From Candidatus Borrarchaeum weybense (GTDB lineage: Archaea; Asgardarchaeota; Sifarchaeia; Borrarchaeales; Borrarchaeaceae), in contig JAHQJS010000004.1 in the NCBI GenBank assembly GCA_019057385.1, positions 340,535-364,534 on the forward strand: a DNA stretch of 24,000 bases, written 5' to 3'. The first letter of the stretch is position 1, and each line of letters begins with the position of its first letter. The position numbers and the translations under genes are program-made. This document shows positions 75 through 884 of the stretch, one piece after another. The notes beneath the pieces are model-generated. The model searched no databases. It had not been told where the DNA came from and saw only the letters and a program-made list of their open reading frames with translations.

Positions 75-884
75 TCACACAACCACCTTCTCACCCTGTC
101 CACTCATAAGATTCAAAGAAGTTCTCCAACCCTCGATATTACTTAGAGTTAGTGGAGTTTCAGTGGTTTCTTCGATAATTTTATAATTTCCTTCACTATC
201 CTCTCCGATTCTTCGAATAGTTTCAACCTTCTGAAGAGCAATATTAAGGATCTTGACGCAACCATAACCACTTGCCCGTCCTGCTCCAAGAATTTCTACG
301 TAGAGCATTGCCTCTATAAGAAACTTGATTTCACCATCAGTTAAGTTAGTCACATCAATGTGAAAGGAAAAAAATCCGCTGAAATAACTCTCACGAAAGT
401 CTTGGATAGGAATACCATCATAGGCAAGAGCTATCCTATTTTCGCTAGCGATGTGGACATTTTGAACAGGCACTTCAGTTGTGTATTCCTTATGTTTAAT
501 CGAGACAATAGGATCTGCAGCGACAACAATAGAGGACTTTTCGCGGAAGGTGCCAAAGATTGTTCGGAGAATACAGGGAGGATCACATGTACCAAGCGCA
601 TGAAACCCTTTCGGAAGAACACTTTTACCATCTTTAAGCGCTGTTTTCTCAGAACTGTGACAGACTTCAATGTTGCAGTCTTGAGCAAGCTCCATACAGG
701 CATGTCTTAGCATTCCTCGGATACCTTTAATGTAATAAAACTTAGTATTGAATGTCTTTGAACTGTTTGTGTAAGGAAGTTTCCCTAACAAGAGCATGCT
801 AGAATTTTTCTGAATCGAGGCATTGATAGGCTTTGCTATGGGTGTAAAGGCATGAATAACTATCTGTTTTTTGATTTTTCTCAT
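75..884 (-). CDS. Cas7-type RAMP protein (Csm3/Cmr4-like), 269 aa
   Basis: ATG at 884 is preceded by a GAGGTTGG SD-like motif. RAMP hallmarks in the translation: 'YYIKGIRGMLRHA' (cf. Csm3 'PGSSIKGKMRNLL'); the Cys/His knuckle 'CHSSEK...CDPPCILRTIFG' (cf. CxxC..RLFG of type III Cas7); the 'VVAADP' strand; and the C-terminal Gly-rich loop 'LGAGRASGYGCVKI' (cf. 'LGGGGTRGNGRI'). Assigned by motif recall only. Confidence 0.6.
   Translation of the reverse strand: MRKIKKQIVIHAFTPIAKPINASIQKNSSMLLLGKLPYTNSSKTFNTKFYYIKGIRGMLRHACMELAQDCNIEVCHSSEKTALKDGKSVLPKGFHALGTCDPPCILRTIFGTFREKSSIVVAADPIVSIKHKEYTTEVPVQNVHIASENRIALAYDGIPIQDFRESYFSGFFSFHIDVTNLTDGEIKFLIEAMLYVEILGAGRASGYGCVKILNIALQKVETIRRIGEDSEGNYKIIEETTETPLTLSNIEGWRTSLNLMSGQGEKVVV

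Follow-up and report, generated by a model that had tools for sequence, protein, structure and literature searches.

The gene at 75..884 of the window, the 24-kb stretch of Asgard archaeal DNA analysed here, encodes a Cas7-like RAMP protein. The preferred reading, held with about even confidence, is that this protein is the backbone of an array-less, type III-derived Asgard module, a non-adaptive ribonucleoprotein nuclease built on an RNA of ~125 nt. The locus is a compact and conserved example, in which the Cas7-like protein is accompanied by a RAMP-HD protein, an optional helicase-Cas1 fusion and a candidate cognate RNA with strong covariation. The features of the window are collected in Table 1.

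Table 1. Positions of the features in the window.
Feature	Position	Strand	Basis
Cas7-like RAMP gene, 269 aa, ATG start	75..884	-	Pfam RAMPs, PADLOC Csm3, structure model
IKGIRG motif, aa 52-57, predicted start of helix 1 of the RAMP core	714..731	-	49-sequence alignment and model
Cys/His cluster C75, H76, H95, C100, C104, then IFG; putative zinc knuckle	573..662	-	Alignment
Glycine-rich loop GAGRASGYG, aa 200-208	261..287	-	G200, G206, Y207 and G208 invariant in 49 homologues
TTTATATA box, 34 nt upstream of the RAMP ATG; putative TATA box	926..919	-	Read from sequence
T7 tract, 15 nt past the RAMP stop; likely archaeal terminator	59..53	-	Read from sequence
First 43 nt of the ~125-nt structured RNA element, P1 hairpin and CGUUCUUGUGC; the rest lies past the window edge	43..1	-	Covariance model R1
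Helicase-Cas1 fusion gene, 1336 aa from TTG at 5241; first ATG 5220	1231..5241	-	Pfam, NCBIfam
SF2 (Hel308/Ski2-like) helicase core, aa 32-355	4177..5148	-	Pfam and motifs
Diverged Cas1 domain, aa 958-1294, putative catalytic E1109, H1189, D1203	1360..2370	-	Pfam Cas_Cas1, 31.9 bits
TTTATATA box upstream of the helicase-Cas1 gene	5283..5276	-	Identical octamer to the RAMP box

Evidence for the RAMP assignment is provided by profile searches and by a structure model. The protein scores 27.9 bits (E 4e-6) against Pfam RAMPs PF03787, for which the gathering cut-off is 22.1, and matches the Csm3 profile of PADLOC with E 3.3e-7; its best profile matches are Csm3, TIGR03986 and Cas7-11. An AlphaFold model (pLDDT 85.5) was compared with the PDB using Foldseek. 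The best 50 matches are all Cas7-containing CRISPR effector complexes of types I, III, IV and VII (E 1.5e-7 to 1e-4, probability 1.0, with TM-scores of just 0.33-0.52), and Cas7 of type VII (9j9e, 8yhd) is the best of them. The original prediction had called the open reading frame a Cas7-like RAMP from its letters and proposed a check with RAMP and Cas7 profiles. The call is borne out, both by these profiles and by a predicted model that resembles Cas7-family structures only.

Homologues of the RAMP form 55 clusters, with Asgard sources throughout (those named are Borrarchaeum, Promethearchaeota, Sifarchaeia, Heimdall- and Thorarchaeota) and identities of 58-94%. Exact-sequence searches with the window RAMP, P0056 and P0035 gave no match, and P0003 returned just a 968-nt contig. 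The dN/dS of the RAMP gene against L001, a 94%-identical relative, is 0.20, and that of the helicase-Cas1 gene is 0.18; both values indicate purifying selection.

Residue conservation was scored in an alignment of 49 homologues. The predicted N-terminal 'IKGxxR' motif is present as IKGIRG, inside the YYIKGIRGMLRH motif at residues 50-61; K53, G54 and G57 are invariant and R56 is nearly so. The G-rich C-terminal loop is found where it was expected, and aligns to the G-loops of TIGR03986, Cas7-11 and Csm3 chains. Of the proposed 'CxxC..FG knuckle', the cysteines and the IFG are there, but the spacing is C100-xxx-C104 rather than CxxC. Since all five residues of the Cys/His cluster are invariant, the cluster suggests a putative zinc site in a thumb-like insertion. 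The same segment can be aligned locally, though weakly, with CxCxxC-IFG of Cas7-11.

In Csm3/Cmr4, the catalytic Asp for target-RNA cleavage sits in the loop following strand 1. Judged from the sequence alignment only, residues 17-30 of the present RAMP, after strand 1, include conserved K18, P19, N21 and Q25 and no conserved acidic residue. Target-RNA cleavage by the RAMP backbone is therefore doubtful.

The RAMP gene had been described as solitary. To the left of the window, the locus was read from L001, whose contig reaches 5.5 kb past the window edge. A conserved partner gene begins ~255 nt beyond window position 1, so the RAMP gene is not solitary. In L001 the order to the left of the RAMP is the partner gene with two copies of the RNA element, then FtsY, OTCase and an HTH protein. 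The suggestion that a type III-like locus continues on this side is thus not quite right: in L001, one more gene and the RNA copies are followed by housekeeping genes.

The partner in L001 is a 279-aa protein in which a small RAMP domain is fused to an HD nuclease domain. In its family, of ~270 aa, the small RAMP domain is N-terminal and includes a G-rich loop, and the HD domain is C-terminal and keeps the whole H..HD..H..HH..D set. In the partner alignment (A3, 50 sequences), G80, G86, G88, W92, H132, D133, H140, H162 and H163 are invariant and D182 is nearly so. Profile matches to HD and Cas5 are weak. The predicted model (pLDDT 88.6) has RAMP chains from type III and type IV effectors, together with Cas6, as its best Foldseek matches (E 0.01-0.1). 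On sequence and model, the N-terminal domain is a small RAMP of a Cas5/Cas6-like kind.

The RAMP and RAMP-HD pair is the conserved core across Loki- and Heimdall-type Asgard contigs and is present in every lineage examined, single-gene loss variants excepted. The partner directly follows the RAMP gene in L001-3, L007, L009-L012, L014, L016, L036, L038, L041, L059, L068, L079, L087, L089, L093, L095 and L097. The loss variants are L006 and L008, without the partner, and L098, without the RAMP gene. Because such variants occur naturally, the two genes are not strictly inseparable at one locus.

The original prediction had offered RAMP plus helicase-Cas1 as a minimal, array-independent pair. Array-independence is supported, but the conserved pair is RAMP plus RAMP-HD. 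When co-occurrence was checked across loci, helicase-Cas1 proved to be facultative, being found beside RAMP/RAMP-HD in 4 of ~13 lineages (window/L001, L011/L059, L013 and L097). In L098, the variant that lacks the RAMP gene, helicase-Cas1 adjoins the partner. Heimdall-type loci carry Cas4-like PD-(D/E)xK and LAGLIDADG genes alongside the pair; a 554-aa Heimdall neighbour was considered as a Cas1 relative and rejected.

The helicase-Cas1 fusion itself was correctly recognised. It has Pfam matches to DEAD, ResIII, Helicase_C and Cas_Cas1 and Hel308-like similarity in NCBIfam; the helicase motifs PTASGKT, DELH, SAT and QLSGRAAR can be read in its translation, and the E-H-D triad of Cas1 is kept (E1109 and H1189 invariant, D1203 at least 90% conserved). 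With phmmer, the Cas1 region alone found no Cas1 in the PDB, and a family profile was required. This profile matches A. fulgidus Cas1 (4n06, 9.7e-21) and casposase (6opm, 9.6e-15); the EG, LNxxY, LH and DxxxxFR motifs align in its matches, and the triad aligns to EG, LH and DLxExFR of 4n06. By these signs both enzymes of the fusion look active. A word-indexed search with residues 700-1336 gave mostly low-complexity candidates and one match, and an exhaustive representative search was used in its place; relatives of the Cas1 domain amount to 25 clusters only among 1.84 billion representatives. The window and related loci yielded neither a Cas2 partner nor an adjacent array of the kind seen in a CRISPR adaptation module.

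The statement that no direct-repeat array is present holds for the whole 24 kb, in which the sole periodic DNA is a 102-nt TPR-coding repeat at 6659-7128. Profile scans of the 17 larger open reading frames of the window likewise confirmed that Cas2, Cas6 and Cas10 are missing among them.

The RAMP and helicase-Cas1 genes do share a TATA-like octamer, as had been proposed. The second TTTATATA copy lies 34 nt before the helicase-Cas1 TTG (5241) and 55 nt before its first ATG (5220), so the spacing is 34 nt for both genes when the TTG start is counted. The T7 tract downstream of the RAMP stop is also present, with a spacing of 15 nt. In RAMP-proximal copies the RNA element is preceded by a conserved TTTCTTTTTTCTCATCYCA block to which this tract belongs, and 72 of 74 nt in this region are identical to L001. 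The gene is not fully the self-contained unit that had been suggested, since a conserved RNA element starts directly past the tract.

Covariance model R1, with which 67 copies of this element were found, matches window positions 43..1 with 16.7 bits (E 0.0052) over model positions 1-44, the match being 3'-truncated at the window edge. A complete copy is found in L001 at 10842-10964. The fold combines two hairpins, P1 and an extended P2, with P4, a long G.U-rich helix that closes an internal loop, and with an A-rich tail. Paired cells make up 93-96%, versus 35-55% in slid controls. Compensatory changes occur at 15 of 25 pairs, and none of 500 shuffles reaches the observed values. Switches from U.G to U-A and from G-C to G.U fix the transcribed strand. 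For the outer P2 helix, where the shuffle control is weak (mean 8.8 versus 7.2 enclosing pairs), reliance is placed on counts from the covariance-model alignment. A 3' helix P3 (AUGAC/GUCAU) was rejected, with 23 unpaired cells at one pair.

The RNA element often has its own TATA box ~30 nt upstream, and TATA-like hexamers upstream of the copies peak at -31/-30. A scan of L001 10780-12480 against Rfam 15 gave nothing at E<=1, and a tRNA/tmRNA scan of the RNA region gave no match.

The conserved part of the element is almost wholly base-paired and has no obvious guide segment. Its invariant 19-nt core was considered as a single-stranded fixed guide and rejected, as the core pairs in P4 (96.9% of cells paired). 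The GGGGACGAGAA segment bears an apparent likeness to staphylococcal type III-A repeats at their 3' end; because it is paired in P4, this is taken as coincidental or, at most, as a lead. The reverse complement of the core is absent from the window at up to 3 mismatches, and in L001 it matches RNA elements alone. A single 18-mer match in a viral collection was rejected as a target of the RNA: it misfits the RNA model and is consistent with chance.

Genomic position, the sole ground for the connection, indicates that the ~125-nt RNA may be linked to the RAMP and RAMP-HD proteins. Sequence collections were scanned with the RNA's 18-mer as the only seed, so that the scan was blind to proteins, and the count took in non-redundant copies for which 900 nt or more of sequence was available upstream. 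Of 44 such copies, 24 follow a RAMP gene, a partner gene or a fragment of either on the same strand, at a distance of up to 450 nt; the other 20 have no RAMP or partner gene nearby. About 26 of 75 metagenome 18-mer matches are chance occurrences, without the remainder of the element. In Loki/Borrarchaeum-type lineages, the element comes directly after the RAMP gene, the partner gene or both, and L013 has three tandem copies and one more. No copy is detectable at the more distant RAMP/RAMP-HD pairs, those of L014 and L016 and the Heimdall-type ones of L093 and L095, and L093 has no room for one.

Some copies directly precede unrelated genes and have an SD-like GGUGAU at their end. The distance from this sequence to the next ATG is 4-10 nt, and the genes placed in this way include those for a GIY-YIG nuclease, a 150-aa protein and a 'MQSMKRV' protein as well as the L065 RAMP gene. 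Downstream of many copies lies a convergent gene, and upstream of one lies a divergent gene.

In the proposed mechanism, several Cas7-like subunits and one RAMP-HD subunit would assemble on the ~125-nt RNA to form a small crRNP-like particle, by analogy with Csm3 and Csm4 on crRNA. The HD domain of the partner would be the effector nuclease. Specificity would be hard-wired, coming from the RNA scaffold or from variable sequence 3' of the scaffold and not from acquired spacers. Helicase-Cas1 would be an optional accessory that does not load an array; it would probably unwind and cut or join DNA after recognition, or else mobilise or duplicate the module. The most likely role of the module is innate defence or conflict with mobile elements, in view of its nuclease content, the occurrence of several diverged copies within one genome bin, the frequency of decay and loss variants and the variability of its accessory genes.

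The specific proposal that the RNA is a dedicated, genome-encoded, non-CRISPR scaffold or guide for the Cas7-like and RAMP-HD proteins, that the RNA or its 3' flank sets the target and that helicase-Cas1 acts on recognised DNA is more tentative, and falls well short of even confidence. If it is true, a dedicated RNA would account for ARAMP-type specificity without spacers, and this RNA would be to a cellular, type III-derived system what vrRNAs are to VIPR or omega RNAs to TnpB. It would then provide a third example, after crRNA and vrRNA, of how a RAMP can be programmed. If the RNA link fails, the locus remains a clean member of a known, little-explored family.

That family is ARAMP (Asgard RAMP), whose systems were reportedly described in 2020 by Makarova et al. 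in CRISPR J. Array-less HRAMP and ARAMP systems are recognised in the current CRISPR classification. According to reviews, ARAMP systems lack an array, are type III-derived, encode nucleases beside homologues of Cas5 and Cas7 and in most cases have a distinct Cas1; their mechanism is called 'enigmatic' (PMC8730458; PMC12669027). Judged from these descriptions, the present module fits the ARAMP kind (PMC8730458, PMC12669027). It shares the Asgard host, the absence of an array, highly diverged RAMPs with type III affinity and nuclease domains. The Cas7 of ARAMP corresponds to the Cas7 homologue here, and its Cas5 may correspond to the second RAMP, which has a G-loop, RAMP-only Foldseek neighbours and a Cas5/Cas6-like character. 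Part of the present loci also have a very diverged Cas1, though in just 4 of ~13 lineages sampled. A difference lies in the nuclease: HNH and PD-(D/E)xK are usual in the reviews, whereas here an HD domain is fused to the second RAMP. Heimdall-type relatives do have a Cas4-like PD-(D/E)xK gene.

Haloarchaeal HRAMP systems are similar in being array-less, with diverged Cas5 and Cas7 and with nucleases, and their mechanism is unknown (PMC8730458). They differ in host clade and, per the review, in having no Cas1 (PMC8730458); this comparison is by description.

Likeness to type III Csm/Cmr complexes is seen in the Cas7 fold, the G-rich loop, the adjoining second RAMP and an HD-type nuclease as in Cas10; the comparators are the Csm3/Cmr4 backbone and the Csm4/Cmr3 binder of the 5' handle. 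Unlike type III, the module has no Cas10, Cas11, Cas6, array or cOA signalling, and HD is carried by a small RAMP instead of Cas10. The RAMP departs from Csm3 in its Cys/His cluster and in lacking a conserved acidic residue near the position of the catalytic Asp.

Type VII (Cas7, Cas5 and Cas14 beta-CASP), type IV-C and the Cas5-HNH Cascades are, like the present module, reduced class 1 systems in which a Cas7/Cas5 backbone is combined with a single nuclease. For instance, the Cas5-HNH Cascades (8zol, 8yb6) are a precedent for a nuclease fused to Cas5. All of these use arrays and crRNAs, whereas here the array is absent and the nuclease is HD.

VIPR offers a parallel for the RNA. A lone RAMP there uses ~100-nt RNAs encoded in flanking intergenic DNA; Vipr forms a separate, early-branching RAMP clade, found mostly in phages, and its vrRNAs consist of GGY/NN pentamer repeats and a tail (10.64898/2026.04.26.720920). 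A VIPR locus has one RAMP gene and one accessory gene and no array, and the present locus is similarly minimal and array-less, with RNAs in the ~100-nt range that are single or in short arrays (as in the three tandem copies and one more of L013). Unlike VIPR, the RNA consensus here has no GGY/NN pentamer periodicity, and the protein scores as a CRISPR-type Cas7. A search of BFVD with the RAMP gave no strong viral relative.

Casposons and Cas1-solo loci share with helicase-Cas1 a Cas1 without Cas2 or array, in which the triad is kept, and casposase 6opm is a clear relative by sequence. The present Cas1 differs in being fused to a helicase, a wHTH and a Zn-ribbon region and in being tied to RAMP genes. 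No family B polymerase is present, and neither TIR nor TSD was found in L001 and L013.

Among other explanations of the locus, the one that survives best, unlikely yet of appreciable weight, is that the RNA has no functional tie to the RAMP proteins and that the RAMP/RAMP-HD pair works without a dedicated RNA. The RNA would be either a repeat prone to recombination or a dispersed cassette that serves as promoter or 5' leader, and would have built up by chance in these rapidly turning-over loci. The pair could then bind heterogeneous cellular or viral RNAs, as a type IV-B effector is reported to do (PMC8730458). Orphans make up 45% of the RNA copies, many copies place a TATA box and GGUGAU ahead of diverse genes, even the RAMP gene of L065, and distant RAMP pairs have no RNA element. 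Recombination between two copies appears to have removed the partner gene in L006 and L008. Yet the protein-blind scan found 24 of 44 copies directly after two specific genes, and the fold is under strong selection; a leader or 3' UTR also sits poorly with the many copies that precede a convergent gene and the one that follows a divergent gene.

It is improbable, and clearly more so, that the whole block (helicase-Cas1, RAMP, RNA, RAMP-HD, RNA) is a mobile or selfish element with Cas1 as a casposon-like integrase, the RAMP, HD and RNA components serving the element, for instance in RNA-guided homing or retention like TnpB with omega RNA. In TnpB systems, the omega RNA scaffold follows the gene and the guide lies just beyond the scaffold; the RNA scaffold after a gene, with a variable flank, has a similar layout here. 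The Cas1 triad is intact, with casposase the second-best structural relative by sequence. The B. yapensis genome bin has four diverged copies, some otherwise orphan RNA copies have 3' fragments of a partner or RAMP gene beside them, and GIY-YIG genes adjoin orphan copies. An abstract on Asgard Cas1 diversity is said to raise new mobile elements as a possibility. Against a mobile block, no terminal inverted repeats or target-site duplications surround it in L001 and L013, there is no PolB or other replication gene, and flanking synteny (eIF6, prefoldin, ribosomal proteins) is identical in the window and L001. Most RAMP pairs, moreover, have no Cas1 gene, and the viral collection gave a lone 18-mer match, which misfits the RNA model.

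A role in housekeeping or regulatory RNA processing, in which the RAMPs would control expression by binding and processing this family of structured RNAs, or mRNAs with such RNAs as leaders, is very unlikely. It would suit a RAMP that is unusually conserved (57-94% identity across nearly all homologue clusters), a locus set among ribosomal, eIF6, prefoldin, FtsY, fibrillarin and Nop5 genes and not in a defence island, and an RNA element that sometimes bears the SD for the next gene. It does not suit a module whose gene content varies and decays, with fragments, loss variants and several paralogues in one genome bin, and which keeps company with Cas1, Cas4-like, LAGLIDADG, MazE-like and HD nucleases; the distribution is also patchy, and the RAMP is not universal in Asgard archaea.

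It is hardly credible that the RAMP belongs as an ordinary subunit to a standard type III CRISPR-Cas locus beyond the left edge, as would be expected from the way in which Cas7 proteins generally act, within multi-subunit effectors: this is refuted for L001, where no Cas10, Cas11, Cas6, Csm/Cmr operon or array occurs in the 5.5 kb past the edge (with 9600-12600 searched for a short-repeat array), and more than 10 other loci with the RAMP module likewise have no type III operon or array.

Others of the 17 larger open reading frames scanned in the window encode ribosomal proteins, eIF6, prefoldin, an ESCRT-like protein (EAP30) and similar products. The archaeal ribosomal proteins, eIF6, prefoldin and EAP30 fit an Asgard host.

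The ORF at the left end of the window encodes a Cas7-like RAMP protein, as originally predicted. It scores 27.9 bits against the Pfam RAMPs family (gathering cut-off 22.1) and 3.3e-7 against a PADLOC Csm3 model, with weak matches to several further models (Csm3, gRAMP and type IV Cas7). With a profile built from 49 homologues, the only PDB matches are RAMP chains (TIGR03986, Cas7-11, Csm3, type VII Cas7); they are weak and restricted to the C-terminal G-loop region. The AlphaFold model built on the same alignment (pLDDT 85.5, pTM 0.82) has a Cas7-like fold. In a Foldseek search of the PDB, the 50 best matches all come from effector complexes that contain Cas7 (types I, III, IV and VII; E 1.5e-7 to 1e-4), with modest TM-scores of 0.33-0.52.

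The hallmark motifs named in the prediction can be found in the protein, except that the cysteine cluster is spaced CxxxC and not CxxC. Judged by its conserved residues, this backbone protein appears to lack the catalytic Asp. The TTTATATA boxes described at the RAMP and helicase-Cas1 genes are present, each 34 nt from its start codon, and so is the T7 tract after the RAMP gene. A repeat search of the whole window detects no CRISPR array, again as stated.

Coordinates of the RAMP gene, the helicase-Cas1 gene and copies of the RNA element
Feature	Location	Strand	Basis or remark
Cas7-like RAMP ORF, 269 aa, ATG start	window 75-884	-	
IKGIRG motif of RAMP	aa 52-57		
G-rich loop of RAMP	aa 200-208		
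Cys cluster before IFG in RAMP			CxxxC; part of invariant C75/H76/H95/C100/C104 set
Helicase-Cas1 ORF, 1336 aa	window 1231-5241	-	
RNA element, 5' 43 nt	window 43..1	-	covariance model 16.7 bits, E 0.005; cut by window edge
Full RNA copies in contig L001	10842-10964 and 11951-12070		
RNA copies flanking the partner gene in contig L007	10792-10923 and 11809-11940		

The exact window protein is absent from the gene index, and the nearest one, 94% identical, was used to look beyond the left edge. It lies on L001, a 24.9-kb contig whose gene order matches that of the window. The RAMP gene is under purifying selection relative to this orthologue (dN/dS 0.20), and the 74 nt that follow its stop codon are identical at 72 positions. 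The rest of a type III-like locus had been proposed, as one of two alternatives, to lie to the left of the edge, and the RAMP gene had been called solitary. Neither is the case: in L001 the next features after the RAMP gene are a 279-aa gene, a 79-codon non-coding ORF-like stretch, and genes for FtsY, OTCase and an HTH protein, and there is no type III operon on that side.

The 279-aa partner has 82 homologue clusters, none of which carries a Pfam domain. In the alignment, an N-terminal domain of ~95 aa ends with an invariant G-x5-G-x-G...W loop. The second domain is helical and contains invariant H132-D133, H140 and H162-H163 and a nearly invariant D182, the residue set of HD phosphohydrolases. 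Profile matches are weak (HD, E 0.04-0.06; Cas5_IIId and typeIV_Cas5, 0.005-0.017), and the best Foldseek neighbours of the model (pLDDT 88.6) are RAMP chains of type III/IV effectors and Cas6, at E 0.01-0.1. The protein is accordingly termed RAMP-HD; its RAMP part may be Cas5-like or Cas6-like.

When the 79-codon stretch was used as a tblastn query, matches appeared after both RAMP and partner genes, revealing a repeated DNA block of ~90 nt. Copies located by nhmmer, and later by a covariance model, define an RNA element of ~125 nt, with 67 copies in the examined loci. It follows the RAMP gene, the partner gene or both in all Loki/Borrarchaeum-type loci, and matches no Rfam or tRNA model. In L013 (11632-13351) the RAMP and partner genes are separated by three tandem copies at intervals of 230-270 nt, a short array of long structured units, and a fourth copy follows the partner; two extra ORFs of ~120 aa separate the RAMP gene from the first copy.

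The structure of the element is well supported. In a model-based alignment of 63 distinct copies 93.4% of cells are paired, compared with 35-50% in a slid-partner control, compensatory changes occur in 15 of 25 pairs, and none of 500 shuffles reaches the observed values. In the favoured fold, the P1 hairpin has compensatory changes in seven of its nine pairs. The long-range helix P4 (96.9% of cells paired) is formed by a nearly invariant CGUUCUUGUGC and a purine-rich strand. Its switches between wobble and Watson-Crick pairs (U.G/U-A 31/25 and 27/25; G-C/G.U 37/20) identify the gene strand as the transcribed one. An internal loop, CAUGAGAC / RRAUGAC, leads to an extended P2 hairpin with a conserved apical loop and a variable outer helix (CCCG/CGGG, CCAUC/GAUGG, CUCAUC/GAUGAG, CCAA/UUGG and others), and the element ends with an A-rich tail. 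Single-copy MFE folds agree with this fold; their z-scores are unremarkable, with the exception of one at -4.55. The internal loop (AUGAGA / GAUGA) is K-turn-like in appearance. One distant RAMP pair has an L7Ae gene, encoding a K-turn-binding protein, ~200 nt downstream of its partner gene (L016:11807-12184), probably by coincidence.

A conserved block precedes the post-partner copies and most of the orphan ones; in it a TATA-like hexamer starts at -31/-30, counted from the first conserved base. Since, in addition, the flanking genes are convergent in some cases and divergent in others, the simplest reading is an independent small RNA gene. A leader function is possible in some contexts, because in many copies the terminal GGUGAU is only a few nt away from the start codon (ATG) of a downstream gene in the same orientation, for example one for a GIY-YIG nuclease (Pfam 7.8e-15), for a 150-aa protein or, in L065, for the RAMP protein itself. 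Orphan copies stand within about 4 nt of the small GIY-YIG gene that follows them in L032:3385-3800, L039 (-, ~7300-7431) and L049 (-, ~4278-4409). Other copies of the element precede the conserved 150-aa protein, of unknown family, in L040, L046, L056, L090 and L011/L059. For these downstream genes the GGUGAU end resembles a Shine-Dalgarno sequence.

The link between the element and the RAMP genes was assessed in a metagenome scan seeded with an RNA 18-mer only, and therefore blind to proteins. The full element is present in about 49 of the 75 loci; the remainder are chance 18-mer matches. Upstream sequence of at least 900 nt is available for 44 non-redundant copies. Fifteen of them are on the same strand as a complete RAMP or partner gene and no more than 450 nt 3' of it, nine adjoin only a 3' fragment of one, and 20 have neither. 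Given that these are two genes in a genome of several thousand, the enrichment is overwhelming, although purely positional. Some modules have decayed and left the RNA with its promoter in place. In L042, L046, L056, L090, L032, L055 and L084, only 3' fragments of RAMP-HD (about aa 207-271) or of a frameshifted RAMP (aa 100-257) remain upstream of an intact RNA. A covariance-model search detects no copy at more distant RAMP pairs.

Across all fetched loci, tblastn places RAMP-HD directly after the RAMP gene in every lineage with sequence, apart from loss variants. This adjacency spans RAMP identities between 94% and 38%, two Heimdall-type contigs among them. Two Borrarchaeum contigs, L006 and L008, have the RAMP gene without the partner. 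Their single element (L006:10792-10923, L008:8956-9094) is a chimera of the 5' half of copy 1 and the 3' half of copy 2 of the sister contig L007, and the loss looks like a deletion by recombination between two direct RNA copies. In L098 (2568-8012) RAMP-HD comes directly after a helicase-Cas1 gene and is itself followed by one RNA element; the RAMP gene is absent. Module shuffling is suggested here, because the helicase-Cas1 is 82% identical to that of the window but the partner only 63% identical to that of L001.

It is thus RAMP-HD that is the conserved companion, and not helicase-Cas1, which had been proposed as a possible minimal pair with the RAMP protein. Helicase-Cas1 stands immediately upstream of RAMP in four of about 13 lineages (window/L001, and L011/L059, L013 and L097 at 34-37% identity), and its family adjoins RAMP-module genes wherever its context was visible. 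Other loci have other neighbours. In Borrarchaeum sp. (L007:6154-9769) these are three genes in the same orientation (451, 353 and 366 aa, of unknown family) directly upstream of RAMP, one with a weak PADLOC HEC-02B match (6.5e-5); an HNH protein and a PD-(D/E)xK-HTH protein are encoded ~9 kb upstream. In the Heimdall-type loci (L093:840-7137, L095:1479-7130) the pair is divergent from genes for MazE-like, LAGLIDADG+HTH (524-554 aa), wHTH and Cas4-like PD-(D/E)xK nuclease proteins and from unknown 664-aa and 224-aa genes; no Cas1 is found there. Nothing recognisable adjoins the pairs of L014 and L016. L014 (VSDH01000023.1, labelled Candidatus Scalindua sediminis, a planctomycete bin) carries a pair at 40% and 32% identity. 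A neighbouring gene carries DUF2299, a mainly archaeal domain, so an archaeal contig placed in the wrong bin is the probable explanation, not gene transfer into bacteria. One Borrarchaeum yapensis bin, possibly contaminated, holds four module copies with RAMPs mutually only 56-67% identical.

The helicase-Cas1 protein begins with a Hel308/Ski2-like SF2 helicase (Pfam DEAD, ResIII, Helicase_C), in which PTASGKT, DELH, SAT and QLSGRAAR are readable. A basic, Cys-rich region follows, and the C-terminus is a Cas1 domain (PF01867, 31.9 bits). This domain is very diverged: phmmer finds no relatives of it in the PDB, and an exhaustive scan of 1.84 billion representative proteins yields only 25 clusters at E<=1e-3, most of them long proteins with the domain C-terminal. 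A profile from 13 of these clusters matches A. fulgidus Cas1 (4n06, 9.7e-21) and the M. mazei casposase (6opm, 9.6e-15). In the profile alignment, the invariant E, N and H and near-invariant D of the family fall on the Cas1 EG, LNYGY, LH and DLxExFR motifs. With both sets of motifs intact, both enzymatic halves look active; the gene is under purifying selection (dN/dS 0.18 against a 90%-identical orthologue). Upstream is a variable repeat-protein slot, occupied in the window (5695-7935, +) by a 746-aa protein with 16 TPR units and in L001 (3320-5518) by LRR and LRR-TPR genes.

Asgard RAMP (ARAMP) systems, found in many Asgard archaea, have been described in reviews from the Koonin group as array-less type III derivatives with diverged Cas5, Cas7 and nucleases; most loci carry a distinct Cas1, which is said to render the mechanism 'even more enigmatic' (PMC8730458; PMC12669027). 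The locus fits this description and is therefore assigned to ARAMP, a known, mechanistically unexplored family. Its architecture is also strikingly similar to that of VIPR, described in a 2026 preprint, in which a lone RAMP with one accessory gene can use ~100-nt RNAs from flanking intergenic DNA (10.64898/2026.04.26.720920). However, GGY/NN repeats are absent from the RNA here, and its protein is a Cas7 of the CRISPR type for which no strong viral relative was found, so the relation is one of functional analogy rather than membership.

The two RAMP proteins would assemble a crRNP-like particle on the RNA element, with the HD domain as the effector and a hard-wired specificity. Helicase-Cas1 would be an optional accessory that processes or mobilises DNA. 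This model is chiefly in doubt because some RNA copies are orphans, distant relatives have no such RNA, the conserved part offers no obvious single-stranded guide, and the backbone protein apparently lacks the catalytic Asp. Alternatively, the RNA element may be unrelated to the RAMP proteins, a reading in which its orphan copies have to be weighed against its enrichment at their genes; the whole block may be a mobile element; or the module may have a housekeeping role. Of the alternatives, only that of an ordinary type III subunit is effectively refuted, by the genes beyond the edge in L001. The original observation is confirmed and its interpretation partly right; the part most worth following up is the RNA element.

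The other window genes scanned are archaeal housekeeping genes and include an ESCRT-II-like EAP30 protein, a content that marks the host as an Asgard archaeon. An Asgard-typical run (12288-16558, -, and 16974-19946, +) encodes SPFH/Band 7 with a zinc ribbon, the EAP30/Vps36-family protein, and proteins of 495 aa (double zinc ribbon) and 990 aa (no family). Further right, a 459-aa protein without family adjoins a 305-aa P-loop protein (22317-23234, +) with weak Zeta-toxin and AAA-kinase-like matches (E about 1e-5).
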